Shown piece by piece: positions 30,156-63,441 of a stretch of 64,000 nucleotides of DNA (its first letter is position 1; every line of letters starts with the position of its first letter). The stretch lies in assembly GCA_020725315.1 (NCBI GenBank), contig DYFG01000001.1:17015-81014 (forward strand), given 5' to 3'. The position numbers and the translations under genes were made by a program. Source of the DNA: Nitrosotalea sp. (GTDB lineage: Archaea; Halobacteriota; Syntropharchaeia; Alkanophagales; Methanospirareceae). The notes beneath the pieces were generated by a model that made no database searches, was not told the DNA's origin, and was given only the letters and a program-made list of their open reading frames with translations.

Positions 30156-30207
30156 ATCGTCACCTCGCCCTCGCCTTTATTCGTTATGAGAATGGTCATT
30201 CTAAACA

Positions 30208-34445: not shown

Positions 34446-35178
34446 GAACTTCTACCTTACTAAATGTATATGGGCTTTCTGCTTCATGATCTAAACAAAC
34501 AACACAATTTTCCGCCGAAGGATTTACGTTCCAATAAACGTAATAATTATCCTCATCTTCATCTACTTCCAACCAGCATTTGCACAACGATTTTCCAAGA
34601 CAGTCGTCACCTGGGAGATAAGGCATCATAAAAGTAATATCGACAGGAATAGTGCCCGCTATAAACGGTGCTCTGGCATACCCATACAGAGAAGAACGCC
34701 ACTGTAGACGACCACTATAAATTACTCCGCTAGACAACGCCTCACGAATGTCTGCCTCAAATCCATCGAAGTATTCATATTCCCTCTCTAAACGCTGTTC
34801 TAAGATTTCCCTGTGCCGTTCAGTAAATTCCTCTCCTTGCAAACCCAACAGCATAAGATCAGAAAAATGGATACGCAGACGATCTCTAAACCGCTCCGAA
34901 AATTCCCTTATTGATAAGGCTCCCGACAAAACAGCGACCAGCAATTCCTGAAATTCTTGGGATGCCTCTTCACAAAGTTCTTCGTATTCCTGTTCGTCCC
35001 GCTCATCATACTGCTTCTTTCCTTTACCAGCAGCATGTATGCACGCGAAAATAGCCTCTTCTTCAGACCCGCCATCTCTCAAAACCGCATTAGCGGCTCT
35101 GATACAACGTTTCTTTTCTGAGACTGTCCAATTCTTAGCAACTTTTGGCACGTAATTGGGATAACGATAGGGACTCAT
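34429..35178 (-). CDS. hypothetical head morphogenesis protein with C-terminal Cys cluster
   Basis: 249 aa, directly after portal. C-terminal CxxC...C..C (CLGKSLCKCW ... CVVC). Confidence 0.3.
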   Translation of the reverse strand: MSPYRYPNYVPKVAKNWTVSEKKRCIRAANAVLRDGGSEEEAIFACIHAAGKGKKQYDERDEQEYEELCEEASQEFQELLVAVLSGALSIREFSERFRDRLRIHFSDLMLLGLQGEEFTERHREILEQRLEREYEYFDGFEADIREALSSGVIYSGRLQWRSSLYGYARAPFIAGTIPVDITFMMPYLPGDDCLGKSLCKCWLEVDEDEDNYYVYWNVNPSAENCVVCLDHEAESPYTFSKVEVHGLTT

Positions 35179-48512: not shown

Positions 48513-48866
48513 CTATAACCAGCATTTAGGTAGAAATATGAGTAAGGGCTTTCCGGCTTTGGCTGAGAGGCAGATCGTATGGTAGGTTCCTTTGGACTCA
48601 CCGTCCCAAAAGGCCACTATACGATCTGCCTCATTCACTATGTCATTATTCCGTCTCATTCCTGCTGAACGCCCATACTTCTTCCAATCAGCAGGGAAAA
48701 TCTTAGTTTCTAGTCCTCGCATCTTTGCTAGTTGTTCTGCCGCCCGATCTACCCCTATAGCTCCGCCGCTGATAACTACGGTTTCTTCATCCAAAGTGTC
48801 AATGAAGTTTTTAATTTTTAGTAAGTCTTTCCAATTTCTTGACCCTACTATTGCAATTTTATCCAT
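48513..48866 (-). CDS. SLOG-superfamily protein (DUF2493/DprA-like Rossmann)
   Basis: IAIVGSRNW ... VVISGGAIGVDRAAEQLA ... RIVAFWDGESKGT. Confidence 0.45.
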   Translation of the reverse strand: MDKIAIVGSRNWKDLLKIKNFIDTLDEETVVISGGAIGVDRAAEQLAKMRGLETKIFPADWKKYGRSAGMRRNNDIVNEADRIVAFWDGESKGTYHTICLSAKAGKPLLIFLPKCWL

Positions 48867-49077
48867 TGTCGATCAAACTAATGAGATAATAAGTAGAGGA
48901 CGCTATCACAATAATCATTCCTAATACAGCTAGAAGATACGGAAAGAACACAATAGAGGCTGCTATTACAACAGGCACAACTACAAACCACGTAGATATT
49001 GCCCCTAGCAGCTTAACCTTATCAAACTCCCACGCATCAGCAATCCAATCTAAAAGCCGTTCTATTTTATCTAGCAT
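48859..49077 (-). CDS. small membrane protein
   Basis: 72 aa with two hydrophobic helices. Confidence 0.25.
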   Translation of the reverse strand: MLDKIERLLDWIADAWEFDKVKLLGAISTWFVVVPVVIAASIVFFPYLLAVLGMIIVIASSTYYLISLIDNG

Positions 49078-49123
49078 GTTAAATGTACTCCGTCTCTAAC
49101 ATATACCAGAACGCCACCAATCG

Positions 49124-49516
49124 TCACTCGATTTTCGCGTCAATGCCCCAGGCCTGCGCAATTTGCAGCAAGATTTCTGCTGCTGTGTCCCTGTGGCAGA
49201 ACTTGCCCCGGCTGCAATAGCACGCCAGCGTCACGACGCCTTTGCCTTGCAGCCAATTACGTAACTCAGGCGCGTACTGCTTCCAGCGCGCCCGCAATAA
49301 TTGTTTGTATGCTGCGACGTACTGTTCGTCGTCAATCGCCGCGTACTTCAGCGTCCACGACGGCGGTTGCTCGCCAGCCCTCTCCGCCGCCCAGCGCTTG
49401 TGCCCCCCGACGATTTCCCAGCTGGGCGCAAAGAAGCGCCCAATGCCTGTGCTCGATTTTACGGTCGTGTCAATTACTTCGGGTTCGCCAATTCTCCCTG
49501 TGCGTATAATTAGCAT
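49124..49516 (-). CDS. DUF488-like protein (GC-rich patch)
   Basis: C-terminal VTLACYCSRGKFCHRDTAAEILLQIA resembles the DUF488 consensus (valmCaE....CHR.lia..L). GC is about 58% by eye. Confidence 0.35.
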   Translation of the reverse strand: MLIIRTGRIGEPEVIDTTVKSSTGIGRFFAPSWEIVGGHKRWAAERAGEQPPSWTLKYAAIDDEQYVAAYKQLLRARWKQYAPELRNWLQGKGVVTLACYCSRGKFCHRDTAAEILLQIAQAWGIDAKIE

Positions 49517-49988: not shown

Positions 49989-50018
49989 TAGTTAAGTTTA
50001 AGAGAAAAAAAAATAATT
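49989..50018. repeat. direct repeat copy A (TTAGTTAAGTTTAAGAGAAAAA..TAATTT) downstream of the 218-aa gene
   Basis: Near-identical to copy B at 50766-50794. Confidence 0.5.
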
Positions 50019-50674
50019 TAATGTACTTTACGTAATTTAACATATTTATGTTTGTAAAATTTTCCTACGGGGGTGAATCCTAAATCAAGCATGTTTTGAT
50101 GTGTGAGATTTACCTTACCCCGTTTACGGGTTTGGGAGATTCCATTTTTAGTATAAATCCATGTGGGTGTGGTTTTTCCTACGTAAGTCCAGCCTGAGCT
50201 TTTATAAACTTCTCCGGTATGTCCTTGCCATGTGTCCGCATACGTAACAAGACATTTCCACCTTGTATCTAACATTTTTATAGATTTACTCAGCATAAAG
50301 GACGCAGAGTTTTTAGGGGCAGAAGGAATCAAAACCATTCGTGAAAGAGAGAGAACACGATTAGGTTCTTCATAAGTAGCCTCTGCCGCACGCCGAGTAG
50401 GGGGCAACCACCAAGTTACTCCAAACAAAACATCAAACTCTTTATGAAACAATCCAAAACAAGCAACACACAGTTTACTAACACTTCTGGTATAGTGATG
50501 TTGAACTATAAGAGTTCTTCCTAATGAGGGATCAATAGGACGTACTTCCCAGGACTCTTTATGTAAGGGGCCTACAGGCAACATATTTTTCTCCTTTAAA
50601 ATTTCCAAGTAAATTTCTGAATATTTGGACTTTCTAGGTTCTGGTATATCTTCCTTGTTAATAATGGTAATCAT
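50018..50674 (-). CDS. hypothetical protein (QHHYTRS ... TYADTWQGHTGEVYKSSGW)
   Basis: 218-aa ORF flanked by about 30-bp direct repeats. Function unknown. Confidence 0.4.
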   Translation of the reverse strand: MITIINKEDIPEPRKSKYSEIYLEILKEKNMLPVGPLHKESWEVRPIDPSLGRTLIVQHHYTRSVSKLCVACFGLFHKEFDVLFGVTWWLPPTRRAAEATYEEPNRVLSLSRMVLIPSAPKNSASFMLSKSIKMLDTRWKCLVTYADTWQGHTGEVYKSSGWTYVGKTTPTWIYTKNGISQTRKRGKVNLTHQNMLDLGFTPVGKFYKHKYVKLRKVH

Positions 50675-50765
50675 TGTTTTTTTTTTCTACAGAAACGATA
50701 TTTATCAATATAGCACAGTACAATAAGAATGTCAATAATCAGGCGGTTTAAGTATGACTGAGGGT

Positions 50766-50794
50766 TAGTTAAGTTTAAGAGAAAAATAATTTCA
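50766..50794. repeat. direct repeat copy B (TTAGTTAAGTTTAAGAGAAAAATAATTT) upstream of the 218-aa gene
   Basis: Pairs with copy A at 49989-50018. Confidence 0.5.
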
Positions 50795-51017
50795 AAAAAA
50801 TTTTTTGTATAAAAATTGTCCAGCGCGCACATCACCGCCGCGAAACCGAACGCGGCTGGCGGGTTCGTTAGCTATTAGCACTAAGACTACAGTTACCATA
50901 ATATGCCGTGTTCAGTTTAGAGTTAACTAAGAGTACAGACACCGTTATACTACCTCTTAAAAACCTATCCACACGTTCCCTAGAATCATAATTTTAGGAA
51001 GTGCTAACCGGGAGATG

Positions 51018-51270
51018 GAATTTAGGAACACCTAAAATAAAAATTAGGCAGACCAAAATAAAAATTAGGCAGACCTAAAATAAAACTTAGGATAATCTTA
51101 TAACTAATTTTGGTCTGATCCAATCAGAAGCTTTCGGCGCGCCGAATTGTCGCAAGTCTGTTTAATGCTCTATTTTCTTATTTTCTGCCATATTCCCTAA
51201 CTTGATTTTTAGGTTTGCCTAATCCTCTTATTGGCTATTCCCTCATTTGATTCTTAGGTTTGCCTAATCT
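51018..51270. repeat. iteron-like array around a palindrome. About three direct copies of AAAATAAAAATTAGGCAGACC at 51033-51097; a 14-bp perfect palindrome TTCGGCGCGCCGAA at 51133-51146; two inverted copies TTTTTAGGTTTGCCTAAT at 51205-51268
   Basis: Seen directly. The arrangement looks like a replication origin, partition site or multi-operator region. Confidence 0.55.
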
Positions 51271-51510
51271 TTAATACCTTATTATATTGCCAGTCTTTGG
51301 ATAGTTCACATGTGAACAGTATACATATACTCTATATCTCTATAAGGTTTAATTGGTTTAGATATAAACGATCTTATCGCGCTTTGGCGTTACAATCTGG
51401 CTATTATCACGAGTCTTTATTTTCGAGAATAGGTTACGCTTTAACGCGGATAAAATCCTATTATCGATCCTGTGTTTTAACATTCGCAATTTTTGGGAAT
51501 GGAGCAAATT

Positions 51511-51587
51511 AGAATGTTAAAAAAGTTTGAATCTGCTAACCTTTGAGGGAAAAACGAATGTTAAAATGGTTTGAATCTGGTTAGAAT
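51511..51587. repeat. two copies of an about 30-nt repeat, GAATGTTAAAA(A/T)GTTTGAATCTG(C/G)TTA, spaced 44 bp
   Basis: AGAATGTTAAAAAAGTTTGAATCTGCTAAC and CGAATGTTAAAATGGTTTGAATCTGGTTAG. Confidence 0.5.
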
Positions 51588-51599
51588 ATCTGTAAGATA

Positions 51600-52560
51600 C
51601 TTGAACACCTAGCTAAATCTGTGATAGGATGTAAGCGCAATTGAGCAAGCGCACATTAAAAATAGCGCCGGCGCGAAAGTCTGGGGCGATGCAGGAAGCG
51701 CCAAGAGATGAGCTTACCCTCAGGCGAGTAGCAATGACGCAATACGCATACGCAACCTTCGGGGGGCTTTCGTCTAGCCAACGAAAGCTGAGCCGTACGG
51801 GGGCTGTAGGAAACTAGTAGACTCGTCCAACCTGAGATCGCACGAGTCTAGAGTAAATCCTAATGGTTGGGGGCCGGGCGGCCCCTCGCTACTAACTGGA
51901 TCCCATTAGCCTTACTCTACTAGCCAAGTGAGCAGATAGCCATATCTGTTATGTCACGCTTGGCTAGCCTAGTTTCCGGCGGCGCAAGCGATTAGAGACC
52001 TCTCTAATACGCACGCGCACCTATAGCACGGCAAACCAAGCGCTGAAAACCTGTTAGGTCGATGAAAGCATACTACACTAGCCAATAGCAGAAGTCTAGA
52101 CAAACAGCCTAGAATCGGCGGGATCGAAAGTAGCCTAATCAATGGCTAGCCTAGCCGATAGTGCATACTGGTGAAAGCGATGACAATGCTAGCTAGTGCA
52201 AGTGCCTAAACGCTGACAGTGATTAATCTAAGTGCGATGCTAAGCCTGGCTATAGTTGTTTTGCTTGTTTTCCCCAACACTCCTCGCAGATAAACCGTAC
52301 CGCACGATATTAGATGATCAATTGCTTAACTCCCGGCGGCTAGGTTATAGGCTATCCTATACCCCAGTCTAAGGGACCAAGTTAGGCATGAGAGACTCTA
52401 TTATCTGGTATAGTCGACTCTGTTAGGTTATGCTAGGCCAAAGCTTAGCTGATCCGCTATAGTGGGATAGCACACTAGGATTAGTTAGGCTAGGCTAGTA
52501 TCTCCCATATCTTATAGTGCCGATAAAATAGGTTATCGGCACTTAGGCTATAGGAGACCA
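51600..52560. other. ORF-free, hairpin-dense, CTAG-rich noncoding region (candidate large structured ncRNA or cis-acting DNA element)
   Basis: No ORF of 60 aa or more in any frame across 51513-52547. 19 CTAG tetramers counted in 51601-52500. Many perfect short hairpins, for example GTGCCGATAA-AATAGG-TTATCGGCAC near 52517-52544 and CTAGACTCGT..ACGAGTCTAG near 51817-51850. Confidence 0.3.
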
Positions 52561-52584
52561 TAACCATACAAAGGAGAAAGGGCG

Positions 52585-52824
52585 ATGAAGCTACAGAAGG
52601 TACAGAAGCTACTGACGGGCGAGTACCGGGAATTGTACGGGGGGCATGGTGTGTGGTGGGTATCCGTGAGGTGGGAAGAGGGGCGGCTCATCAGTGAGTG
52701 GTGGGCAGACGGATTACCGGCGGTGAGCAGACCGGTGACTAAGGCTGAGGGCGCGGATGATGTGGAGAGGATAATTCGGTCGGTGTGCGCAGACTTCCGC
52801 AAGGTGCGGGGTCTGGCTTGGTAG
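52585..52824 (+). CDS. hypothetical Trp-rich protein (GC-rich)
   Basis: 79 aa, RBS AAGGAGAAAGGG, GC about 58%. Confidence 0.35.
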   Translation: MKLQKVQKLLTGEYRELYGGHGVWWVSVRWEEGRLISEWWADGLPAVSRPVTKAEGADDVERIIRSVCADFRKVRGLAW

Positions 52825-52849
52825 ATAGATTAGCATACAGGAGATCAAA

Positions 52850-53107
52850 ATGGCACACTATTTGGTCGGTACGAATACCCGCGGGTATTTGCCCGTGGGC
52901 GATCCCATCGAATGCGAGACATTGATCGAAGCTAAGCAAGCAGCACGACAGGAAGCCCTTTACTTGGCTGAAGAGACCAATAATAAGATCGAAGTTTGGT
53001 CATCTCTCAACAGTATCACCAAGCGCGATCTTGTGAACTATGGTGTACCGATTACTTACGCGGTAATCGGAGACATCGAAGTTTGGATCGCCATTGAGTC
53101 GGATTAG
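52850..53107 (+). CDS. hypothetical protein
   Basis: 85-aa ORF followed by a hairpin. Confidence 0.35.
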   Translation: MAHYLVGTNTRGYLPVGDPIECETLIEAKQAARQEALYLAEETNNKIEVWSSLNSITKRDLVNYGVPITYAVIGDIEVWIAIESD

Positions 53108-53115
53108 GGCAGTTA

Positions 53116-53141
53116 AGGCGTACAAGCGATCTTGTACGCCT
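53116..53141 (+). terminator. hairpin AGGCGTACAAG-CGAT-CTTGTACGCCT, putative terminator or attenuator
   Basis: 11-bp perfect stem. The 3' tail is only moderately T-rich. Confidence 0.4.
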
Positions 53142-53185
53142 TATAGTGTTCTAATCCCATAAGGGATCAAATAGGAGACTATGCT

Positions 53186-53515
53186 ATGAAACTCACGAAT
53201 GAAGTAGCGGTATACGTCCCATCTACGCTTGGCGAGTCTAACGCCGATCCGGCGCTGATCTCACGTATCGTTGATCAGGCATTGACCGATCTTAGTGTCG
53301 TCAATGGCGGCGCTACTGTGACTAATGGGATCGGCGCATGGCTATCTCATGACGGTAAGCTCGTAAAGGAGTCTGTGACTATCGTTTCCAGTAATTGCGA
53401 GACGATCACATTACAGACTCTTAGAACACTCGCAAAATTGCGAAAGACTATACGCGAATCGATGAAACAAGAAGCCGTTACTGTAAGGGTTAACGGTGTT
53501 CTCTATATCCGATGA
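53186..53515 (+). CDS. hypothetical protein
   Basis: 109-aa ORF with RBS TAGGAGA. Confidence 0.35.
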   Translation: MKLTNEVAVYVPSTLGESNADPALISRIVDQALTDLSVVNGGATVTNGIGAWLSHDGKLVKESVTIVSSNCETITLQTLRTLAKLRKTIRESMKQEAVTVRVNGVLYIR

Positions 53516-53591
53516 GACTAGCTAGTAGCCATAATGGGAATTATGGCTACAATGGTAGCCTTATCAATCATAGCCAATAGGAGAATCTACA

Positions 53592-54002
53592 ATGTTCCGT
53601 ATGATCGATGGATTAGATGACGTCCCAACGGGGGAGTATGCTTGGCAATATTTTAAGTATACGCCTGAATCGGCACCGATCCAATCGCAATATTGGATCG
53701 ATCCATGGGGGAATGTCTACCCCGTTGATTGGCACTACGCGTCAGCACCAGAATTGATCATTCGGCACTTCGGCAAAGATAAGCTTGACTCACTTCGTGA
53801 TGAAAATGGATACTGGAAAATCAACCCGGTTGATTTTCTTGAAAATAATCGATGGCTCCACGTATCCTATATTGGCGTTTTTGGTGACTACACTCAACGA
53901 GGGTATGAGGCACTAAAAACATTGCACCAAAGGATGTCTGAAGCGAACGGTAGCGGCCGCGTACGGGATACTCTGAGGCATATTGCGGTGTATGTTACGT
54001 AA
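53592..54002 (+). CDS. hypothetical protein
   Basis: 136 aa. The upstream context ATAGGAGAATCTACAATG is identical to that of the next gene. Confidence 0.35.
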   Translation: MFRMIDGLDDVPTGEYAWQYFKYTPESAPIQSQYWIDPWGNVYPVDWHYASAPELIIRHFGKDKLDSLRDENGYWKINPVDFLENNRWLHVSYIGVFGDYTQRGYEALKTLHQRMSEANGSGRVRDTLRHIAVYVT

Positions 54003-54017
54003 GTTAAGGACAGTTTC

Positions 54018-54040
54018 AATGCCCTACACTGTAGGGCATT
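54018..54040 (+). terminator. hairpin AATGCCCTAC-ACT-GTAGGGCATT
   Basis: 10-bp perfect stem directly after the stop of the preceding gene. Confidence 0.4.
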
Positions 54041-54073
54041 GGCTAGTGTCTTTAACCTATAGGAGAATCTACA

Positions 54074-54439
54074 ATGACACGGCATGAAACGGGGGCGTAC
54101 GGGGAACAAATTGTACAGACTCTTACCGCTGGCAGGTTTGGTAAGCTAGGACGTGATTCGGATATTGTCCTGGCTAACGGCACTCAGATCGAAGTTAAGA
54201 CCGCACGTAAAGGTAAAGATGGAAAATATCGGGCGCGATTGTACAAGCCCGGTAGCCAAGATCATCGAAAGTCTGATTTTGTCGTGTTTGTCCTGTTAGA
54301 TGACGGGGTATACTTTTACGTGATCCCTACAGATGACATTAGAGATCGCGTGCAATTGACCATTACGAGCCATCCTAACACCTATAACGGCAAATATGCA
54401 CAATACAGACAGGAGAGTCTGGCATGGTTAGCGCATTGA
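54074..54439 (+). CDS. putative PD-(D/E)xK-fold nuclease-like protein
   Basis: 121 aa. GRDSDIVLANGTQIEVKTARKG fits the D-x(n)-E-x-K signature. Weak. Confidence 0.3.
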   Translation: MTRHETGAYGEQIVQTLTAGRFGKLGRDSDIVLANGTQIEVKTARKGKDGKYRARLYKPGSQDHRKSDFVVFVLLDDGVYFYVIPTDDIRDRVQLTITSHPNTYNGKYAQYRQESLAWLAH

Positions 54440-54735
54440 TCATCAGCGTATCCCTGATCGTGGTGGTGAGTCTATTGCGGCGCATTAGACTCACTAATTA
54501 TACTCTCGAACAATCTGAATCCGAACGACAACGTGCCTTAGTCCGCCTGGAAGAGTATCATCACGATCTCAAATTACTGTCATGTTTGACAGTCGAAGAG
54601 TCTGGTCAAGTGTCGTTTTTGGCACTTGTGCCAGATGATACCGCTACCATAAGGTTCAACGAATACGTGATCGACTACAAATCGCTACTGGAATTTGAAC
54701 GCGGCGATAGTGACTATATCACAGTCTATAACTAA
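54424..54735 (+). CDS. small protein with N-terminal TM helix
   Basis: 103 aa, MVSALIISVSLIVVVSLL. Confidence 0.3.
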   Translation: MVSALIISVSLIVVVSLLRRIRLTNYTLEQSESERQRALVRLEEYHHDLKLLSCLTVEESGQVSFLALVPDDTATIRFNEYVIDYKSLLEFERGDSDYITVYN

Positions 54736-54751
54736 ATTGTAGATCAGTCTC

Positions 54752-54777
54752 ACACACACAAGATCGCTTGTGTGTGT
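54752..54777 (+). terminator. hairpin CACACACAAG-ATCG-CTTGTGTGTG
   Basis: 10-bp perfect stem after the stop at 54735. Confidence 0.4.
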
Positions 54778-54826
54778 TGGCTGGCATACAATTTATAGGA
54801 TATGCCATAGCATAGGAGACAAAATC

Positions 54827-55393
54827 ATGAAGATATTAGAATTTCTTTATCGCTTGGATCGCATTTTCCCTAATGCCTACTTTAGTTTTGCTCCTGGCTG
54901 CAAGGAGCCGGGCTATGATGACAAACCAGTTATCATGGCGGATTGGAATAAAGTCCCAAAACACGTTTTTGACAAGTTAGAATCTCTTGGCTATGCCTGC
55001 GAATGGTTGGATGAATGGGCTACATGTGCTGAATGCAATAAAGCCGTTCGAACGAGTCCTAATTCGTATGACTGGACTTCAGCGTATGTTATCCAAGACG
55101 GTGATCTCTTGTGTCTAGATTGTGTCGATGCACAGGCGTACTACGAATCCATCGAAAATCGTTCTGATGTTGCTGCTAGTAATGAATTCGCCCACCATTA
55201 CAAGCCGGAAGATTACGGCTATGTTAAAGTGAATGAAGATCATTACATTAATGGCCTTCACGGTATCGTAGATGATCCAAAGCAGATTCTAGGTGATCTT
55301 TTGAGCGACGATCCTGAAGGACGATTCGTTTTTACACTGGACTATACGTCACAATTCGAAGTCGGGTTCAGTGTATACCGCAAAGTCGTTTAA
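54827..55393 (+). CDS. hypothetical Cys-rich protein
   Basis: Start at the ATG after ATAGGAGAC. CEWLDEWATCAECNK ... LCLDCVD. Confidence 0.35.
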   Translation: MKILEFLYRLDRIFPNAYFSFAPGCKEPGYDDKPVIMADWNKVPKHVFDKLESLGYACEWLDEWATCAECNKAVRTSPNSYDWTSAYVIQDGDLLCLDCVDAQAYYESIENRSDVAASNEFAHHYKPEDYGYVKVNEDHYINGLHGIVDDPKQILGDLLSDDPEGRFVFTLDYTSQFEVGFSVYRKVV

Positions 55394-55468
55394 TTAGTGT
55401 TTACTACTTAGTGTATACTTAAATTTATTTTTCTTTGAATGTGTTCTGCTAAATCATAGGAGCGTATC

Positions 55469-55702
55469 ATGCTTAACATTTTCCGCCGTAAAAACAAATC
55501 AGTAACTAATAAGCCGATCTTTAAGGCGTCATTTGACACTACTGGCGTAATCACCTTACGCCACAATGGCGTAGTAGTTTGTCAAGGTGATATTCACGTC
55601 TTTAATCAATTCTTACGTGCCAATAAAATCCCGCGCGACCGCATCATCTGGGGCGAATATGACTCAATTAAAGAGTCATATTGGAAAAGTCGATACAATT
55701 GA
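55469..55702 (+). CDS. hypothetical protein
   Basis: 77-aa ORF. Confidence 0.3.
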   Translation: MLNIFRRKNKSVTNKPIFKASFDTTGVITLRHNGVVVCQGDIHVFNQFLRANKIPRDRIIWGEYDSIKESYWKSRYN

Positions 55703-55934
55703 ACTAATTAGAACACACAAACGTACCAGTGTAGCGATGCTTTGGGTGAGATTCCTATGCTACACTCCTGCCTTTCAGAGCGGCAGGGTATAGGTATCTG
55801 GTTTGTGTGTTTTGATTAGGCCCATCCTTATTGATAAGGAGTAGTAAGCTCATAATACTTAATTATACTTATATTTAATTTTTACTAGGGCATAGCGTAG
55901 CCTTTACGCTAATAATCATATAAAGGAGAATACA

Positions 55935-56234
55935 ATGAATAACGAAGGCTTCAAGGGTGATAAACTTACCTATCCAGAAGGCACGACTCTTTGGGTACTG
56001 TGTAATGACTCGTTTATGTCTGGATGGGGAAGGGCTGGGGGCGTTATTAATACCCTTATTTTCCCCTGCAAAGACCTAGCACAAGCGAACATTGTAGCCG
56101 ATAATGCGAGACGCAGAGGCGATCAGAAATACGTGAGGATCGTAAGTCGCGCGCCCCGCCTGCGCGGCGGGCATTACTACCAAGTTAAAACCATTGACGA
56201 GTACCCTATGTGGTACAAGTACGGGGCGTTTTAG
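55935..56234 (+). CDS. hypothetical protein
   Basis: 99-aa ORF with RBS AAAGGAGAA. Confidence 0.3.
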   Translation: MNNEGFKGDKLTYPEGTTLWVLCNDSFMSGWGRAGGVINTLIFPCKDLAQANIVADNARRRGDQKYVRIVSRAPRLRGGHYYQVKTIDEYPMWYKYGAF

Positions 56235-56551
56235 TAGATCGATACTGTACATTACAAGTCCAGTAATGTACAGTAATGGGTCTATTATGGCGTTTATCTC
56301 GATTTGTTCTATACTGGCGAGAGTGACATTAAAATCGATAATGTGTCACTAGGCGCAAGTATCGGAGAAGGAGAGGGTACAATGTTAATGATGATTAACT
56401 ACTCCACTAGTACTGCGGTGATTATGTTCGCCGCGTACACTGTTATCGTGCCATATCGTATTGCTTCTAATTTATCCAGAAGCTTAGGTATGGCCAGTAA
56501 TACATTCGCTACAAAGTCCGGTATCCTGCTAATTTGGCAAAGGAGTACACA

Positions 56552-56785
56552 ATGAATCGTATAGCCGTCTGTGAAGTATATTATCTAATCGAGGCGCTTT
56601 ATAACGTCGGCGGGATCGTGCCCGAACGACCTTTAAATGCGCGACGTAGGGCACATCCCGAAAGCATCGGCGCACAATTAGCCCGTATGGGGTTTAAGCC
56701 CTCTCCGCTTCTCAGTATTGACCGACTGGATGAGGAACAACACAAATATTTCCGTACCCTATTATCGCGGTGGGGTATTAAATAA
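56552..56785 (+). CDS. hypothetical protein
   Basis: Start at the ATG after AAAGGAG. 77 aa. Confidence 0.3.
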   Translation: MNRIAVCEVYYLIEALYNVGGIVPERPLNARRRAHPESIGAQLARMGFKPSPLLSIDRLDEEQHKYFRTLLSRWGIK

Positions 56786-56922
56786 TCTTACGTACATACT
56801 TATTACATACTTATACTTACTTGTTTATACTTAAATTTAATTCTTTAATGGCGCGAAAAATCCGCCTATATATAGATACATTATACAAATCGGCGTATCC
56901 TGTTGGATAAAAGGAGATTCAA

Positions 56923-57117
56923 ATGTACAACAAAGGTGATCAAGTTGAAGTCTTGCGTACCGGCTCTCGTATTTATGCTGGTACATGGAAAAAGGGAACC
57001 GTGATCGAATCTACTCCAAGCGCTACAGTAGTTAGCGTGGATTGTGGTAACAACCAAAGTCTGAAATATACGATCAAATCACAAGACGTTGATATTTATA
57101 TTCGCCGTGTGAGTTAA
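56923..57117 (+). CDS. small SH3/Tudor-like beta protein (DUF-type, GDQVEV..GTWKKGTV)
   Basis: 64 aa with RBS AAAAGGAG. Confidence 0.3.
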   Translation: MYNKGDQVEVLRTGSRIYAGTWKKGTVIESTPSATVVSVDCGNNQSLKYTIKSQDVDIYIRRVS

Positions 57118-57268
57118 GGAGAAAATAACGTGCCTAACCATCAAGCGAAAGACGATCCCGACAATCTCTTCCCGATCCTATGTATTTATGACTGGTATGA
57201 CTAATCATACCTACCTCTGCACATTGGAAATGGTGTGCAGTATTGGGATGAAAGTAAAGGAGTGTACC

Positions 57269-58192
57269 ATGCCTAAGAAAAATTCGGTTGAACGGCGTAT
57301 CCTAGACACACTGATTAAAGCAGTCGAGTCTAGCGGATTGCTGCCCTGGCAACGTCCGTGGGTTGTTGCCCATCCTATCAATCTTGTGACATACAATGCT
57401 CACAAGTCCGAAGGCACACCGGAAGAAGTGTGTATTAAATACGGTTATAAGGGTATTAATCCCCTGCTCCTGTCACTGTCTGAATTTTCCAGCCCCTTTT
57501 GGTTTACCTACAAACAGGCTACCGATTTGGGGTGGCAAATCCGCAAAGGTGAGAAGTCTTCTTTCATCGTTTACTGGAACATTTTTGAGAAGACTGTCAC
57601 CGATGATGACGGGGATGATCGTATCGTTAAAATCCCGTTCCTTCGGTATTATAACCTGTTTAACGTAGAGCAGGCCGATCCTGCTGAGGGTAAAGAACCT
57701 GCCCCTATTCCTACGATTACAGATATTGATAAGACAGACCGCAAGCGTGATGATATTAAAGAACTACTTACAGCGTCATGGCTTGCGCCTACTACCTTTA
57801 AGGGTACACAAGCAGCGTACATCCCATCACAAGATCGGATCGTGATGCCCCCAGTGGATGCTTTTAAATCCTATGCTCATTTTTATTCGACGTGGGCGCA
57901 TGAGGCAGTGCATAGTACCGGACACATCGACCGACTAGGGCGAGAGGGTGTTGTTAATCCTTCATTGTTTGGTAGTGAGAAATATGGGTTTGAAGAGTTG
58001 ATCGCGTGTGTTGGTCAAGCGATGTTCTGTGCACGAGTCGGTGTGCAGAATGAGGACATGAATAAAAACGACGCAGCGTATCTCAAAAACTGGTTGCAAG
58101 TATTGAAAGATGATCCCCGCATGATCGTAAGGGCTGGATCACAAGCGCAACGTGCAATTGATTTTATCTTCGGTGACGACTCTCCCCGCTAA
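57269..58192 (+). CDS. ardC: ArdC-like antirestriction protein (ssDNA-binding N-domain plus zincin-like metalloprotease motif)
   Basis: C-terminal STWAHEAVHSTGH, matching the HExxH...TGH signature of ArdC/DUF1738. Start at the ATG after AAGGAG. 307 aa. Confidence 0.7.
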   Translation: MPKKNSVERRILDTLIKAVESSGLLPWQRPWVVAHPINLVTYNAHKSEGTPEEVCIKYGYKGINPLLLSLSEFSSPFWFTYKQATDLGWQIRKGEKSSFIVYWNIFEKTVTDDDGDDRIVKIPFLRYYNLFNVEQADPAEGKEPAPIPTITDIDKTDRKRDDIKELLTASWLAPTTFKGTQAAYIPSQDRIVMPPVDAFKSYAHFYSTWAHEAVHSTGHIDRLGREGVVNPSLFGSEKYGFEELIACVGQAMFCARVGVQNEDMNKNDAAYLKNWLQVLKDDPRMIVRAGSQAQRAIDFIFGDDSPR

Positions 58193-59790
58193 AGCTAAAG
58201 CGGGGAGCTTCCCAGGGCACGCTCGCCGCAACCGGCCACGTTACGCTCTGGCGGCCCCGTCCGGGCCGGGTTGACCGCAAGCATCAGGATATTCCGAGGT
58301 TACACTGCCCATCACCGCGATCCATCCGTTGCAACAGCATCGCCGTTCTGAGCTTCGCGGGACACGTTTGACCCACTGGCCTGCGTTTCGTCCCGCGCGC
58401 CCGGTACAGGCGCTTTCAACCCTAAGCGAAGGATGTTCTTCGCTGCGTTCACGTCGGCGTTTTCTTCATGCCCGCACGAAAGACACCGGAACCGCGCTTG
58501 TGTTTTACGATTTTCGGCGTCCACTACGCCGCACTCGGAGCACGTTTGACTCGTGTACGCTGGCGGCACCTTGACCAACTGGACGCCGCGCTCGGCACAC
58601 TTGTATTCGAGCAGTTGCCAGAAGGTCGCAAAGCCGGCATCGTGCGCGCTCATGGCGAGACGCTTGTTTTCGATCATGAAGTCCAGCGTCAGATCTTCGA
58701 TGGCGATCAGCCCGTAGGTGCTCGTGAGCCAGTCGGTGACGGTGTGCCAGAAATACCACCGCTGTTGTCTGATTCGGTCCTCCAGCTTGCGCAACTGGCG
58801 CTCGGTTTCCTGCATGCGCGTGGACTTGTGCCAGATGAACACGCCGGGTTTGGGCGTGCCGTCCGCATTGTAGTTCTGCGGGTTGTTGGCGCGGCGCTGG
58901 CGGTCCAGCTTGCGCATAAGCACGCGGCGCTTCTGCTGCCCTTCCCGATACCAGCGCGGGTTATCAATGGTCGTGCCGTCGCTGAGCGCCAGCAGGTAGA
59001 CCATGCCCACGTCAATGCCAACGGCGGGCTTCTGTGAAGGTTCCGGCTCGGCGTCGGGTATTTCAAGCTGGAGGGCGGCGTACCACTGGCCGCGCCGGTT
59101 GCGCAGCACGAGCACGTACTTGATGACGCTCAGGGGCGGCAGATCGCGGTGAAAGCGCAGACGGATGTCACCACAGTTGGCGATGCGCAGCTTAGCCCAC
59201 CCGTCCGACGTTTCGATGAGTTTGCACCCACTACCGTACTTGTAACCCAGGCTGCGGAAGTGGTAGCGCCCCTTGAAGCGCGGGAAGCCCGGTGTTTCGC
59301 CCGCCTTGACGCGGCGGAAGAACGCTTTATAGGCTTTGTCCAGGCGGCGCATAAGGTCATCTACCGTGTCATAGGGCAGCAGCCCGAACGTGTCCGGTTC
59401 CTCTTTGCGCAGTGCGCACCAGTGATCACGCAGGTCATACAGGCTGATGCTCTCGCCGCGTTCCTCATACGCTTCCTTGCGCATGGCGAGGGCACCGTTG
59501 TAGATTTTGCGCCCCTGCCACAGCAGGAAGTCGAACGTCCGCGCTTGCGCCCTCGTCGGATACAGCCGGTACTTGTACGTCCGAATCATCGCCGCCCCAG
59601 AACAGAACACCCCGCCGAAGATTGTGTGTTGTCTAGGCACACGCGCGCGGCAGGGTGTTCCGTCCACAATCATAACGCACGTATCATGCCTAGACAACAT
59701 TAGTATACCGCACATTCGTTCGCAAAGCAAAATCAGAAAGGAGGCAAGCGCCATTCCCAACCGGGCTAAAACCCGGTGTCCCCTGGCGCA
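58193..59790 (-). mobile_element. second IS200/IS605-family tnpB-only insertion, GC-rich, abutting the ardC stop
   Basis: Right-end hairpin CTCCCCGC-TAAAGCTAAA-GCGGGGAG spans the ardC stop (58180-58210). Left-end-side 11-bp inverted repeat TTGTCTAGGCA..TGCCTAGACAA at 59626-59697, and hairpin CCGGGCTAAAACCCGG at 59759-59775. GC is over 60%. Confidence 0.6.
58312..59589 (-). CDS. tnpB: TnpB (OrfB_IS605) RNA-guided endonuclease family (start at internal Met, MIRTYKYRLYPT)
   Basis: N-terminus MIRTYKYRLYPTRAQARTF. C-terminal zinc finger CSECGVVDAENR...CLSCGHEENADVNAAKNI. Listed ORF is 58312..59760. Confidence 0.85.
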   Translation of the reverse strand: MIRTYKYRLYPTRAQARTFDFLLWQGRKIYNGALAMRKEAYEERGESISLYDLRDHWCALRKEEPDTFGLLPYDTVDDLMRRLDKAYKAFFRRVKAGETPGFPRFKGRYHFRSLGYKYGSGCKLIETSDGWAKLRIANCGDIRLRFHRDLPPLSVIKYVLVLRNRRGQWYAALQLEIPDAEPEPSQKPAVGIDVGMVYLLALSDGTTIDNPRWYREGQQKRRVLMRKLDRQRRANNPQNYNADGTPKPGVFIWHKSTRMQETERQLRKLEDRIRQQRWYFWHTVTDWLTSTYGLIAIEDLTLDFMIENKRLAMSAHDAGFATFWQLLEYKCAERGVQLVKVPPAYTSQTCSECGVVDAENRKTQARFRCLSCGHEENADVNAAKNILRLGLKAPVPGARDETQASGSNVSREAQNGDAVATDGSR

Positions 59791-60054: not shown

Positions 60055-60093
60055 AAGCCTGCCTAAGCGGTGTTATACAAAGGAGAACAAATC

Positions 60094-61119
60094 ATGTTTT
60101 TCTTAAACGGTCAAGAAGGAAATACAAAGAAAACGTGGGCTACTAATGAGTGGCCCCTTACTACTGTCGATGCGATTGCCGAAGTAGTCCGGCCCCTGTT
60201 GCCTTATTCCTCTACTCTAGTAGACAAAATCTACACCGTTCTGGCGGCTATGCCCCTTGACATGCGCCCTGGTAAGGCATTTGCTAAGGCGTTCTATCAA
60301 CACAATCAGATCAAACTGAGTGCAGAAATTAAAGCACAGATCGGCCAGCTTCTTTCATCTTTCGTAGACGAAAACCTAACGCTGCGTCTCACGTTGGGAT
60401 GCCGCGGTTCTTCATGGGAGTATTACCACGAAGATAGTTGCTGGTGGGGCGACTTCGAAAGAAGCCGCGATGTATTGGAACACAACGGCGGGGGTGCGAT
60501 TCGCGCCTATAATGAAGATGATGAACTAGTTGGAAGGGTATGGTTCTTGCCGTATGAGGATCATATCCTTTTGTTTAATAGCTACGGGAAGGGTGCGTTA
60601 GAACATATTTATGCGTGGGGTGTTCTCGTAGAACAGGCGTTTGGGTGGAAATCCAAAAAAGTCTCTGCATATTTCAGTTGTGATAATTCCGATCTTTATG
60701 TCAACAGCCACACGATGGTGGTTGTTGGCCCTGAAATGTATGAAGGGGAAGGGCCTATTTACCCTAATATCGACGTAGATGCGCCGTATTATTACTCGTC
60801 TCCACCGGTGTATTGTTCTGGTTGTAATGAACGGGTAAGAGAAGAATATGCCTACTATCATAGACATGTGTATGGGATTGGCGAAGGGTATTTCTGTGAA
60901 CCATGTCATGAAGATATTGTAGATGTTACAGCAGGCCACTATGCCGGATATGAGGCGTTTTACAATGACGTATTTGAATTAGAGTATGGCGACTTTGCCA
61001 CCTGTTTGGTGGAAGAAGTTGAATACAATGATCTTGGTAACGCCTACCTGCCAAAAGACGGTGTGGAAGTTGGGGGAAGGATCTATTCTCCAATTTCCCT
61101 TCCTCTAGAACAGGAGTAA
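60094..61119 (+). CDS. member A of a tandem triplicated Cys-rich protein family (unrecognised)
   Basis: Start at the ATG after AAAGGAGAA, within 1 nt. Shared motifs DMRPGKAFAKAFY, LTLRLTLGC.G, DSCWW, SRDVLEHNGGGAIRAYNED, WFLPYED, C-terminal CxxC...CxxC ITAGHYAGY. Confidence 0.5.
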   Translation: MFFLNGQEGNTKKTWATNEWPLTTVDAIAEVVRPLLPYSSTLVDKIYTVLAAMPLDMRPGKAFAKAFYQHNQIKLSAEIKAQIGQLLSSFVDENLTLRLTLGCRGSSWEYYHEDSCWWGDFERSRDVLEHNGGGAIRAYNEDDELVGRVWFLPYEDHILLFNSYGKGALEHIYAWGVLVEQAFGWKSKKVSAYFSCDNSDLYVNSHTMVVVGPEMYEGEGPIYPNIDVDAPYYYSSPPVYCSGCNERVREEYAYYHRHVYGIGEGYFCEPCHEDIVDVTAGHYAGYEAFYNDVFELEYGDFATCLVEEVEYNDLGNAYLPKDGVEVGGRIYSPISLPLEQE

Positions 61120-61124
61120 GTGCC

Positions 61125-62252
61125 ATGTTTTATGCAAACGGACAAAAGGGTAAGGCTGGGGCTAAGACTAACTGGCCTTACCCAACTATCGTAGAGGTCA
61201 CAAAACTGGTACGAGAAGTGTCCTATCTGTACACGGACTCAATCAACTATCTACTAACAAACTGCCTCAATCCAAACATGAACATTGGTAAGGCGTTTGC
61301 TAGTGCCCTATATAAACAGTTTAAGGTGTCCTTACCAGAAGATACGAAAGCCAAGATCGGCTCCCTGCTGTCAGCGGTGCCGGATGAAGACACAGAAGTT
61401 GTCCTGACATTGGGGTGTAAAGGTTCAGCACGTGACTACTATAACCCTGACTCCTGTTGGTGGAACGGGTATGCTCGTAGCCGTGATGTACTCGAATATA
61501 ATGGGGGTGGGGCACTTCGCGCTTACAATGAGGATGGGACACTTATAGGACGTGCATGGTTTTTGCCTTATGAGGACTGGATCGTCGTGTTTAACTGTTA
61601 TGGTGATGGCAATCTACAACATGCCCAAACTTGGGCAAGCCTTATCAATAAGGCGTTCGGGTGGTATGCTGAGGTTGTTAAGACAGATGACTTCAGTATT
61701 GCTGTTGCTGATGAAGACCTGTTCGTAAACGATGCGGCAGGAGTCATTGTAGGAACCAAGCCCTACCCCAGAAAGAAAGTCCATGTTAGACCAGATGTAA
61801 ATGCCCCGCATATTTACACTAGACCTACAGTTAAATGTGCTGTTTGTGGTTTACGAGTTAGTGTTCACAACATAACTGAAATTCATAGCCCTCTAATTCA
61901 CTTAGATAGTAACCTAGTATGTAATTACTGTCTCAACACTAACATAGATACCATTTCAGCAGGAAAATATGCTGGTCAACTAGCACTGTCTAGTCAGACA
62001 ATATTTATGAGCGACAATCGTACCTATTACTATAAAGACCCTGAAGTATACTGTGATCCGTTTGGTTGTTGGTGTTTTACAGAAGAGGCAATCAACGTAA
62101 ATGGAACACTGTATGCTCCTTGTGTTATAGTAACGGATGTGTACGGGGGTGTTCATGTGCGTGGTATGGACACCTATCAGTATTGCCTCAGTTGCGGTAA
62201 GATTTTTCCAGCAGATGATCCACATTTTACGGAGGGCTGCAATGAAAATTGA
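61125..62252 (+). CDS. member B of the tandem triplicated Cys-rich protein family
   Basis: MFYANGQKG... IGKAFASALY, LTLGCKGS, DSCWW, SRDVLEYNGGGALRAYNED, WFLPYEDWI, CAVCG...CNYC ISAGKYAGQ, terminal CLSCGKIFPADDPHF. Confidence 0.5.
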   Translation: MFYANGQKGKAGAKTNWPYPTIVEVTKLVREVSYLYTDSINYLLTNCLNPNMNIGKAFASALYKQFKVSLPEDTKAKIGSLLSAVPDEDTEVVLTLGCKGSARDYYNPDSCWWNGYARSRDVLEYNGGGALRAYNEDGTLIGRAWFLPYEDWIVVFNCYGDGNLQHAQTWASLINKAFGWYAEVVKTDDFSIAVADEDLFVNDAAGVIVGTKPYPRKKVHVRPDVNAPHIYTRPTVKCAVCGLRVSVHNITEIHSPLIHLDSNLVCNYCLNTNIDTISAGKYAGQLALSSQTIFMSDNRTYYYKDPEVYCDPFGCWCFTEEAINVNGTLYAPCVIVTDVYGGVHVRGMDTYQYCLSCGKIFPADDPHFTEGCNEN

Positions 62253-63441
62253 AGATGGTAAGACGGGTGTTACTACCTCGCGATCTGGTGCCTGGTGGAC
62301 AATGTCCTTATTGCGACAACTTTATGACGCTTTACAAGTAGATGTCTCACCGCGGGATATCAGCCTCTCACCCTACAGTATCGAAGAAATTTTAGAAAAT
62401 CTTGATCAGGATATGCGTCCTGGCAAGGCATTTGCTAAAACATTTTTCAAACTGCGGGGAATAAAACTGTCTCCCAAAACAATAGCCGAAGTAGGCAACC
62501 TCATTGCAGCACTACCAGAAGAGCCGCTTACCCTGCGTTTGACGTTGGGGTGTGATGGTACACGCGAAGAGTATTACAATGATCGAAGCTGTTGGTGGAC
62601 GAATTTCCCTAGAGCGAGGGACATTCTGCATTTCAACGGTGGGGGTGCGATACGCGCCTATAAAAATGAGGAACTAATCGGACGTGCGTGGTTTTTGCCT
62701 TATGAAGATTGGATTGTGTTGTTCAATTTCTATGGGCAGGGCGCTCTACAACACGCTCAAACGTGGATGACCGTTACCAGCCAAGCCTTTGGTTGGATTA
62801 CGGCTATTCAGAGTATAGATTTTGAATGTTCAAAAGAAGATTTATATGTTAACTCTCCTACTTGTGTGGTAGCAGGGACCGTCCCTGCCCCACGCATTTA
62901 TGTCATCAAACCCGAACTAGATGTGCCCTATCTCTATTCTAAAAAAGAAATTTGCTGTGAGAATTGTGGGGACTGCTTTCCAGAAGAGAACGTGCGATTC
63001 ATGGAAGATACCCTGATAGAACCAGGATATTACTGTGAAAACTGTGAGCGAGACTTGCTCCAAATTACAGCAGGTAGTTATGTTGGGGAGTGGTGTTTCT
63101 ACAATTCAGCAGTGTTTCTTGATGATGAGATTTACTTTCACGGCGATCAAGAGATCGTGCTTGATCCGTGCGGTGCTTGGTGCCGTTGTGCTGATGCAAT
63201 TCGGGTTGGGGAATTTTACTATGCCCAACAGTCTCTAGTAATAGATGAATACGGTACACCACACCCGCGCAACGGGGGTACGTGGCAGCGGTGTGGGTGG
63301 TGTGGTAAAATATACCCTAGGGGGGATGAACATTTTGCACAATGCTGCCAACAACACCTAGCAAGACGACAGCAGCGTGCAGAGGTTAGACAGGGGTTGG
63401 AAGAACGCATTACTCAAAGACTTTACAATGATATGTTGTGA
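62242..63441 (+). CDS. member C of the tandem triplicated Cys-rich protein family (start at the ATG overlapping the member B stop)
   Basis: DMRPGKAFAKTFF, LTLRLTLGCDGT, RSCWW, ARDILHFNGGGAIRAYKNEELIGRAWFLPYEDWI, CENCGDC...CENCERDLLQITAGSYVGE, terminal CGWCGKIYPRGDEHF. Confidence 0.5.
   Translation: MKIEDGKTGVTTSRSGAWWTMSLLRQLYDALQVDVSPRDISLSPYSIEEILENLDQDMRPGKAFAKTFFKLRGIKLSPKTIAEVGNLIAALPEEPLTLRLTLGCDGTREEYYNDRSCWWTNFPRARDILHFNGGGAIRAYKNEELIGRAWFLPYEDWIVLFNFYGQGALQHAQTWMTVTSQAFGWITAIQSIDFECSKEDLYVNSPTCVVAGTVPAPRIYVIKPELDVPYLYSKKEICCENCGDCFPEENVRFMEDTLIEPGYYCENCERDLLQITAGSYVGEWCFYNSAVFLDDEIYFHGDQEIVLDPCGAWCRCADAIRVGEFYYAQQSLVIDEYGTPHPRNGGTWQRCGWCGKIYPRGDEHFAQCCQQHLARRQQRAEVRQGLEERITQRLYNDML

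Follow-up and report, generated by a model that had tools for sequence, protein, structure and literature searches.

A mosaic accessory region with predicted counter-defence genes in an uncultivated siphovirus-like phage, probably shuffled at stem-loop and Shine-Dalgarno joints

INTRODUCTION

The class I early region of phages T3 and T7 (gene 0.3 to gene 1.3) is a leading operon that includes counter-restriction genes, coding for the SAMase of T3 and the Ocr protein of T7. In the hyperplastic regions of T4-type phages, promoter-early stem-loop (PeSL) elements form mobile regulatory cassettes, and their stem-loop/promoter/Shine-Dalgarno units are crossover points (PMC2839356, PMC4122927). Here, we describe a cassette of genes (positions 52585-58192, + strand) in a 64,000-nucleotide stretch of contig DYFG01000001.1 (assembly GCA_020725315.1), referred to as the window, which is the genome of an uncultivated, siphovirus-like phage. 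The cassette shares features with both systems: taken as a whole, it is probably a mosaic, hyperplastic accessory phage region with counter-defence genes, shuffled at joints made of a hairpin and a Shine-Dalgarno sequence.

RESULTS

Gene set and mosaic architecture of the cassette

Thirteen co-directional open reading frames (ORFs), 12 small ones (ORF1 to ORF12) and a gene for an ArdC-family protein, were found on the + strand within 5.6 kb (52585-58192). GGAG was present 5-10 nt upstream of the ATG in 13/13 ORFs, using corrected starts for ORF7 (54827), ORF10 (56382), ORF11 (56552) and ArdC (57269). An initial annotation, which had described a dozen small + strand ORFs with TAGGAGA-type ribosome-binding sites, was borne out by these data. 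Substitutions between ORF2-ORF8 and their relatives were concentrated at codon position 3, indicating that these are genuine protein-coding genes.

Fourteen related metagenome contigs of ~1-3 kb, with ~80% nucleotide identity to the window, were recovered by searching for homologues and looking up their contigs. ORF1, ORF1-2, ORF4, ORF5 and ORF7 were each missing, or replaced by an ORFan, in some relative, as follows:

L011: leader joined straight to ORF3; ORF1-2 missing
L018: ORF1 alone missing
L013: ORF1-2 and ORF5 missing; ORF3 and ORF4 separated by two novel ORFs of 183 and 65 aa
L015 and L008: ORF5 directly after the ORF3-ORF4 spacer; ORF4 missing (in L008, probably)
L010: an unrelated 93-aa ORF in the place of ORF7; a 71-aa ORF after the long hairpin that follows ORF8
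L017: operator region followed by two novel ORFs and then ORF3; little of the leader left

No significant family match was obtained for the swapped-in ORFs. The sequence-resolved junctions lay in conserved hairpin and ribosome-binding-site sequences, and the readable ones were located at the ribosome-binding site. The 9-mer ATAGGAGAC precedes ORF3 and is also contained in an orphan ribosome-binding site, TATAGGAGAC, after the leader hairpin, so that the two copies bracket the ORF1-2 insertion exactly; the junction between leader and ORF3 in L011 fell at this repeated ATAGGAGAC. Similarly, the 71-aa ORF of L010 uses a TAAGGAG sequence that is left as an orphan in the window. These comparisons support a rapidly shuffling accessory gene set, in which genes appear to be swapped at conserved hairpins and ribosome-binding sites.

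Stem-loops between the genes

Seven strong stem-loops were identified, with fold z scores from -4.7 to -7.2; no shuffled sequence folded equally well. Their positions are as follows:

52516-52545, + strand: stem-loop before the first gene (z -4.8), followed by the orphan ribosome-binding site TATAGGAGAC at 52552-52561
53117-53141, + strand: stem-loop after ORF2 (z -5.7), core ACAAG-CGAT-CTTGT
53525-53550, + strand: stem-loop after ORF3 (z -6.0)
54016-54040, + strand: stem-loop after ORF4 (z -4.7), outer helix 54003-54056
54752-54777, + strand: stem-loop after ORF6 (z -6.0), outer helices 54735-54793
55704-55822, + strand: branched 116-nt stem-loop after ORF8 (z -6.3), followed by the orphan ribosome-binding site TAAGGAG (~55836)
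56244-56276, + strand: stem-loop after ORF9 (z -7.2)

The ACAAG..CTTGT core was repeated at several positions. The stems covaried among the relatives. In the stem after ORF2, compensatory changes were found in 4/11 pairs with 100% of cells paired, and in the stem after ORF3 in 5/11 pairs with 96% of cells paired, the observed values being reached by 0/500 shuffles in either case. A CC/GG to TT/AA change was present in the stem after ORF4 in L010-L012. The hairpin before ORF1 was represented by three unrelated stem sequences in three phages, with its structure and place kept in L011 and L018. In general, the spacers had diverged no more than the genes beside them: the spacer after ORF4 was 86-97% identical compared to 77-83% for ORF4, the spacer after ORF6 was 86-93% identical compared to 66-73% for ORF6, and the long hairpin after ORF8 was 90% identical in L010 compared to 78% for ORF8.

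The consensus fold of the 116-nt element was stronger on the + strand than on the - strand (-52.3 vs. -31.7 kcal/mol), and its stem substitutions were wobble-compatible on the + strand in 6/6 cases. G-U pairs and one-sided changes were acceptable on the + strand only. This tolerance, together with the stronger + strand folds, suggests that the elements are RNA structures in the + strand transcript.

All of the window hairpins were without a U-tract, the 8 nt downstream of each stem containing 2-4 T, and none of them was listed in a terminator scan. The lack of a U-tract means that they are not canonical intrinsic terminators. The three hairpins that had been named as terminators in the initial annotation are thus real and joined by four more, while their identity as terminators was not sustained. 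The extended folds after ORF4 and ORF6 had 22-24 pairs with internal loops, and the interrupted 20-24-bp form of the stems resembles that of the annotated RNase III sites R0.3 and R0.5, located on either side of the SAMase gene in T3. Most likely, the hairpins are RNase III-type processing or stability elements, or attenuation elements, rather than full terminators. In L013 (1144-1299 and 1498-1613), a canonical G+C-rich stem with a T-run lies behind each of the two novel ORFs, whereas the resident hairpins have no T-run; the modules inserted in L013 appear to bring their own terminators.

ORF3, a candidate SAM or SAM-AMP lyase

The initial annotation had not flagged the third gene of the cassette, for which cleavage of S-adenosylmethionine (SAM) or SAM-AMP is predicted:

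53186-53515, + strand: ORF3, 109 aa, candidate SAM or SAM-AMP lyase with a PII-like fold; phrog_3543

The structure of the ORF3 monomer was modeled with high confidence (predicted local distance difference test score [pLDDT] 92.8, 17 homologues) as a PII/ferredoxin-like beta-alpha-beta-beta-alpha-beta fold, nearest to that of a phage SAM lyase. Its top structure matches in PDB were the phage SAM lyase Svi3-3 (6ZM9 and 6ZNB; E value 1e-6, template modeling [TM] score 0.72). Matches to CutA and PII proteins were below Svi3-3 (TM score ~0.5), and the SAM-AMP lyase 9GAD was also among the matches. In the family of 17 homologues, which reached down to 33% identity, T44, G50, E62, Q95 and E96 were invariant and W52 was conserved in at least 90%. 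The residues T44, G50, W52, E62, Q95 and E96 parallel S50, G56, Y58, E69, Q104 and E105 of Svi3-3 in order and spacing, by which, and not by superposition, the equivalence was set.

In Svi3-3, Gly56, Glu69 and Gln104 are the only residues strictly conserved among active SAM lyases, and Tyr58 and Glu105 complete the site; E69 is the catalytic Glu at the end of the T-loop, and Q104 is the Gln of the B-loop (PMC7877911). The counterparts in the T3 SAMase are E68, Q94 and D95 (bioRxiv 10.1101/2023.02.27.530186). ORF3 therefore has in common with phage SAM and SAM-AMP lyases a PII-like fold and the Gly, aromatic, Glu and Gln-Glu ligand residues in order and spacing; unlike Svi3-3, it has Trp in place of Tyr58 and a shorter T-loop, and the sequence similarity is not significant. 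The known SAM lyases are themselves mutually without detectable similarity (PMC7877911). SAM-AMP lyases represent the second candidate activity class for ORF3 (PMC12255297).

Searches of ORF3 in Pfam, NCBIfam and PHROG gave no SAMase match. Its family, phrog_3543, is annotated as of unknown function with a weak DUF3574 match, and occurs in Staphylococcus, Lactobacillus and Bacillus phages. Taken together, ORF3 is SAM-lyase-like in its modeled fold and its catalytic residues, which makes lyase activity its predicted function. In L019 (1575-1799), ORF3 was disrupted after codon 54 (protein P0137, 74 aa), indicating that the gene is dispensable in at least some lineages.

The ArdC-family protein and the nuclease-like ORF5

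Two further products of the cassette were assigned to families with described members:

57269-58192, + strand: ArdC-family protein, 307 aa, with an N-terminal ArdcN domain that binds single-stranded DNA and a zincin metallopeptidase domain with HEAVH
54074-54439, + strand: ORF5, 121 aa, Hjc/YraN-like PD-(D/E)xK superfamily protein; missing in L013

The ArdC-family protein matched PF08401 (8.7e-24; 84.5 bits compared to a cutoff of 22.6; residues 7-131), PF18818 (1e-32) and phrog_7245 (1.5e-72). It was aligned over its full length, with both domains, to ArdC of the IncW plasmid R388 (6I89 and 6SNA; E value 5e-44), with HEAVH opposite HEATH. The ArdC-like end of the cassette, as initially annotated, was therefore borne out by Pfam, PHROG and PDB 6I89. 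The two proteins have the same two domains and HExxH zinc site in common and differ in setting, since the window copy is phage-borne and lies at the end of a phage operon, while the R388 copy lies in the leading region of a plasmid. The R388 protein allows incoming DNA to escape type I restriction (PMC7213743), and the window protein is predicted to relieve type I restriction likewise. ArdC is also carried by Caulobacter phiCbK-like phages, at ~37% identity to the window copy; in IMG/VR, no relative of the window ArdC was found.

The ORF5 sequence alone gave no match in Pfam. An exhaustive profile search recovered 225 remote homologue clusters, and an alignment of 72 homologues showed E40 and K42 to be invariant and E11 and D30 to be conserved in at least 90%, so that the catalytic residues E...D...E-x-K are present in order. 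The family profile matched the archaeal Holliday-junction resolvase Hjc (1GEF; E value 0.0016) and UPF0102/YraN (3FOV; E value 0.0023) across the catalytic core, with the tetrad aligned with E9, D33, E46 and K48 of 1GEF (numbers counted from the alignment). Matches of family members to NOV_C, PDDEXK_5, UPF0102, NERD and Hjc were sub-threshold (1e-4 to 1e-2). The tetrad, with which the Hjc/YraN profile matches are in line, supports the PD-(D/E)xK-like nuclease of the initial annotation at superfamily level, and ORF5 is probably a small Hjc/YraN-like nuclease.

A TACTTA-repeat/AT-rich motif in three gaps

The sequence TATACTTAAATTTA was found exactly at 55414 and 56826 and with one mismatch at 55864; no other site with ≤1 mismatch was present in the 64 kb. 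An extended form, ACTTA-N4-6-ACTTA followed by TACTTAWATTTA, was limited to the same three + strand sites:

55402-55430, + strand: motif copy 1, ACTTA-N6-TATACTTAAATTTATTT
55854-55883, + strand: motif copy 2, AATACTTAATTATACTTATATTTAATTTTT
56794-56845, + strand: motif copy 3, four or five (A)TACTTA repeats followed by TATACTTAAATTTAATTC

A shared AT-rich motif in three gaps had been noted from the outset, and it is indeed present at all three and unique in the window, except that the trailing TTTAATG is not common to all of them. The stretch of ~57 nt around copy 1 was identical in L013, where ORF7 was just 66% identical, which argues that the motif is functional; the whole motif-bearing spacer after ORF7 was 95% identical compared to 66% for ORF7. 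Copy 1 was missing from L010, where ORF7 was replaced. No consistent -35 element was found at the motif copies. The three AT-rich elements represent conserved cis-acting sequences, which may function as internal promoters or as operators.

Divergent control region and untranslated leader

A gene-free divergent control region of ~2 kb (50675-52584) lies upstream of the cassette and contains the following features:

50707-50735, - strand: putative leftward sigma-70-like promoter, TTGACA-17-TATATT with a TG extension; 11/12 matches, best in the scan
51019-51273, no strand assigned: ~5 operator/iteron-like palindromes CCTAA-N8-TTAGG, three in tandem at 21-22 nt and two more 45 nt apart
51260-51288, + strand: candidate rightward promoter, TTGCCT-17-TATATT, 9/12 matches, overlapping the last palindrome and inferred only
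51322-51600, no strand assigned: conserved non-coding block with two 24-nt direct repeats, GAATGTTAAAA..GTTTGAATCTG (repeat D13)
51600-52560, + strand: structured untranslated leader of ~960 nt, with GNRA-type loops and CTAG 19 times compared to 3.3 expected; fold z -4.1

The palindromes were recognized from repeat families D1, D2, D8 and I1-I4, and the palindrome block was 86% conserved in L007 compared to 70% for the adjoining Mom gene. Promoter-like sites in the region were not above chance (20 vs. 17.2 expected). Compared to L019, 51322-51600 was almost fully conserved, and the whole match of 51322-51754 was 82% identical.

The end of the leader, when folded together with L011, gave a consensus of -80.8 kcal/mol on the + strand compared to -59.3 kcal/mol on the - strand, with 87 pairs and 0 broken. 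Covariation in the leader helices was reached by 255/500 shuffles in an underpowered set of 4 sequences, and the evidence for a specific leader structure is only suggestive. Substitutions in the leader had no 3-base periodicity, which makes a decayed or missed gene unlikely. The leader was modular among the relatives, since L019 holds only parts of it and L017 is without most of it. At gathering thresholds, Rfam matched nothing in the whole window, and 50.6-52.65 kb gave chance-level matches only (E values up to 10); a conserved 23-mer of the leader was unmatched in IMG/VR.

Remaining genes of the cassette

The other ten genes are without assignable function, being either ORFans or members of phage families of unknown function:

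52585-52824, + strand: ORF1, 79 aa, G+C content 0.60, no family match; in none of the relatives
52850-53107, + strand: ORF2, 85 aa, acidic, no family match; in L012, L018 and L019, not in L011 or L013
53592-54002, + strand: ORF4, 136 aa, no family match; missing in L015, probably also in L008
54424-54735, + strand: ORF6, 103 aa, single N-terminal transmembrane segment; 16-nt overlap with ORF5
54827-55393, + strand: ORF7, 188 aa, 6 Cys including two CxxC; phrog_35561; swapped for an unrelated 93-aa ORF in L010
55469-55702, + strand: ORF8, 77 aa, basic, no family match; 78% amino acid identity in L010
55935-56234, + strand: ORF9, 99 aa; phrog_5423, a function-unknown family mostly of Bacillus phages
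56382-56555, + strand: ORF10, 57 aa, weakly hydrophobic with zero acidic residues; called in only some assemblies
56552-56785, + strand: ORF11, 77 aa, no family match; start overlaps the ORF10 stop
56923-57117, + strand: ORF12, 64 aa, possible SH3/Tudor-type small beta-barrel; RodZ_C 0.0033 and Agenet 0.084, both sub-threshold

Family matches were absent for ORF1, 2, 4, 8, 10 and 11, and the NCBIfam search returned nothing useful. The G+C content of ORF1 (0.60 compared to 0.44 for the genome) is near that of the TnpB element downstream of the cassette and, together with its absence from all of the recovered relatives, suggests a recent foreign acquisition. The small membrane protein and the Cys-rich proteins noted initially point to ORF6, which has a clear N-terminal transmembrane segment (Kyte-Doolittle 2.41, residues 1-19) and was found in 7 relatives with 55-61% amino acid identity, and to ORF7, which is acidic (D+E 33 compared to K+R 17) and belongs to a function-unknown PHROG family of actinophages. 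The SH3-like claim for ORF12 rests on the two sub-threshold matches listed above. ORF9 as a WD40 repeat protein was considered spurious, no stretch being significant by itself. Between ORF12 and ArdC (57131-57205), a 24-codon, GTG-started micro-ORF with a strong AAGGAGA ribosome-binding site was observed, which could be a real micro-protein or an orphan ribosome-binding site remaining from module loss.

Phage setting and neighboring genes

The JGI metagenome contig Ga0246235_100118 (sample 3300029892; 82 kb) matched the window. The phage genome contains a tape-measure gene, an intein-containing large terminase, a DNA polymerase, an integrase and two TnpB insertions, and the phage is probably temperate. 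A megablast search of 50,697 phage records with the cassette found zero matches, with no INPHARED phage similar at the nucleotide level, and zero tRNAs were found in a tRNA scan. Leftward genes, including the structural genes, occupy 5.8-50.7 kb, with a Mom-family gene at their head; rightward genes start at 52.6 kb and share their strand with the DNA polymerase, leaving ~2 kb gene-free between the two arms. The cassette is flanked by the following genes:

50018-50584, - strand: Mom-family DNA-modification gene, first gene of the divergent leftward arm; Pfam Mom 3.6e-28, phrog_1384
58312-59760, - strand: TnpB (IS605 OrfB/Cas12f-like) insertion bounding the cassette; Pfam; G+C content 0.61

The start of the Mom gene was set by a 188-aa gene call and homologue coverage. 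Mom was dropped as a synteny anchor because its homologues (47-54% identical) sit in the contexts of unrelated phages. Small genes for DUF488-N3a and YAcAr/DprA-like (SLOG-type) proteins lie just downstream of Mom (48513-49516, - strand), and the leftward arm may thus also hold counter-defence or nucleotide-signal-binding genes.

The TnpB element (58195-59760, - strand) lies directly 3' of the ArdC stop codon. In three other samples, contigs of the same phage terminate at 58260 or 58298, indicating that the TnpB insertion is polymorphic or is a repeat that breaks assemblies. Host inference from TnpB was rejected; the best genomic relatives were 28-36% identical and scattered (Poribacteria, Deinococcaceae, Chloroflexota). 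A second TnpB-type transposase (43467-44594, - strand; phrog_506, 2e-96) has only 59 nt at 83% identity in common with the first. LAGLIDADG homing-endonuclease segments (phrog_11023) were present in the large terminase and two more long ORFs (37723-40476, 35175-37736 and 22519-24579, - strand) and are probably inteins. A block at 26000-30200 with a G+C content of 0.52-0.54, compared to 0.44 for the genome, includes an 800-aa ORF (27753-30155, - strand) without a PHROG match and may be another foreign insertion. At 60070-63441, three consecutive + strand genes (349, 375 and 434 aa) contain a 131-nt segment repeated ~1 kb apart, indicating that they are paralogues; they had no Pfam match and no significant PHROG match.

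DISCUSSION

The cassette probably represents a mosaic accessory region, and its expression and function may be pictured as follows. Transcription most likely yields one long polycistronic RNA, which would begin at about 51.0-51.3 kb, within the divergent control region, and continue across the ~1-kb leader; each of the 13 genes has its own strong Shine-Dalgarno site for translation. At least two of the products, ORF3 and ArdC, are predicted to act in counter-defence. ORF3, as a predicted trimeric, SAM-lyase-like enzyme, would destroy SAM and thereby disable SAM-dependent type I and type III restriction and bacteriophage exclusion (BREX), or it would destroy the SAM-AMP signal of type III CRISPR (clustered regularly interspaced short palindromic repeats) systems; ArdC, as a metalloprotease of the zincin type that binds single-stranded DNA, would defeat type I restriction as the R388 protein does. 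The stem-loops would process, stabilize or attenuate the RNA, much as RNase III sites do in the T3/T7 early region. The hairpin and Shine-Dalgarno sequences would be the joints for gain, loss and replacement of single-gene modules, through a presumed recombination mechanism. The initial annotation had proposed an anti-defence or host-takeover region, and its accessory character and counter-defence content stand (ArdC, the SAM-lyase-like ORF3 and Mom on the divergent arm), while the terminators do not.

Several observations weigh against this picture. With 10/13 genes lacking a function, counter-defence is a minority of the content, and the terms early, polycistronic and promoter are derived from position. 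The comparison was made with 1-3-kb contigs, each covering part of the cassette. For ORF3, a PDB profile search gave no match to characterized SAM lyases, and hhalign of its family with the T3 SAMase was not significant (probability 1.3%; QE aligned to Q94-D95). The PII/ferredoxin-like fold is common, and many phage proteins with such a fold are uncharacterized. Svi3-3 itself gave no BREX relief in vivo (bioRxiv 10.1101/2023.02.27.530186). The structural model of ORF5 was poor (pLDDT 50), with PDB profile E values of ~2e-3.

Two of the rival explanations turn on what the hairpins are. They could be factor-independent terminators or attenuators that need no U-tract, with the AT-rich elements as restart promoters, which would make the region a full promoter-terminator cassette. 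T4-type PeSL stem-loops do terminate efficiently (PMC2839356), the motifs lie downstream of gene ends, and the novel ORFs of L013 are followed by canonical stems with T-runs; however, zero window hairpins passed the terminator scan, most are followed directly by the next ribosome-binding site without a promoter-like element, and efficient termination would leave ORF3-ORF7 unexpressed. We regard this explanation as unlikely. The hairpins could also act at the DNA level, as cruciforms or protein-bound recombination hot spots that drive shuffling, perhaps after being cut by the Hjc-like ORF5. The stems are perfect 10-12-bp palindromes, the module junctions adjoin them, the catalytic tetrad of ORF5 is that of a Holliday-junction resolvase, and covariation alone cannot separate an RNA hairpin from a DNA palindrome. 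However, G-U wobble and one-sided changes are tolerated on the + strand only, which argues for selection on RNA; in addition, L013 retains the hairpins without ORF5, and the junctions resolved in L011 and L010 fall at the Shine-Dalgarno sequence, outside the stems. Recombination at DNA palindromes is therefore very unlikely to account for the region.

A third explanation concerns the genes themselves, which could be morons, that is, lysogenic-conversion genes that are transcribed from the prophage with their own promoter (TACTTA/AT-rich) and terminator (hairpin) and benefit the host. The integrase of the phage, the conserved AT-rich element before three genes or gene pairs, the hairpins after most genes, the gain and loss of single genes among relatives and the foreign G+C content of ORF1 would all be expected of morons. 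Nevertheless, the motif is present in only 3/11 intergenic gaps, the hairpins have no U-tracts, the genes are co-directional and packed as in an operon with overlaps at ORF5/6 and ORF10/11, and ArdC and a SAM lyase would serve incoming DNA and not a lysogen, so that a set of morons appears quite unlikely. Beyond these rivals, the leader and the 116-nt element could be new phage non-coding RNAs absent from Rfam, module-shuffled and with a function of their own, such as that of a decoy or sponge for a host nuclease or defence sensor, or of a processing platform for the timing of counter-defence gene expression; a linked idea is that ORF5 cuts the palindromes and drives shuffling. We consider this to be rather improbable.

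If the mosaic accessory region is read correctly, it provides a sequence-resolved case of PeSL-style modular shuffling that is not confined to T4-type myoviruses. For phrog_3543, a widespread phage family, a testable function as a SAM or SAM-AMP lyase is gained; if true, it would serve to counter type I/III restriction, BREX or type III CRISPR. Anti-defence screens could reasonably include the ten genes without an assignment, along with the ORFans that relatives carry in the same slots.

Compared to the PeSL cassettes, the region has the same small ORFans flanked by repeated, conserved intergenic units with a stem-loop and a Shine-Dalgarno site, the same indel and replacement endpoints between relatives within these units, beside ORFans, and a content that is likewise non-essential and adaptive. 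Unlike PeSL, most units here have no sigma-70 promoter, and three have the AT-rich motif without a -35 element; the stems are not polyG/polyC, and the phage is siphovirus-like with an integrase, whereas PeSL phages are T4-type myoviruses. Strictly, these are not PeSL cassettes, since most units lack the promoter component. With the T3/T7 early region, the cassette has in common counter-restriction genes in a leading operon, interspersed small genes of unknown function, and interrupted stem-loops without U-tracts between genes, the last being a resemblance only. It differs from that region in having no sequence relationship besides the SAM-lyase fold, no phage RNA polymerase in the window, and a structured leader of ~1 kb. 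The region is thus of a familiar kind and not a new system, and it does not overturn current understanding; its closest analogues are the T4-type PeSL cassettes and the T3/T7 early region, functionally combined.

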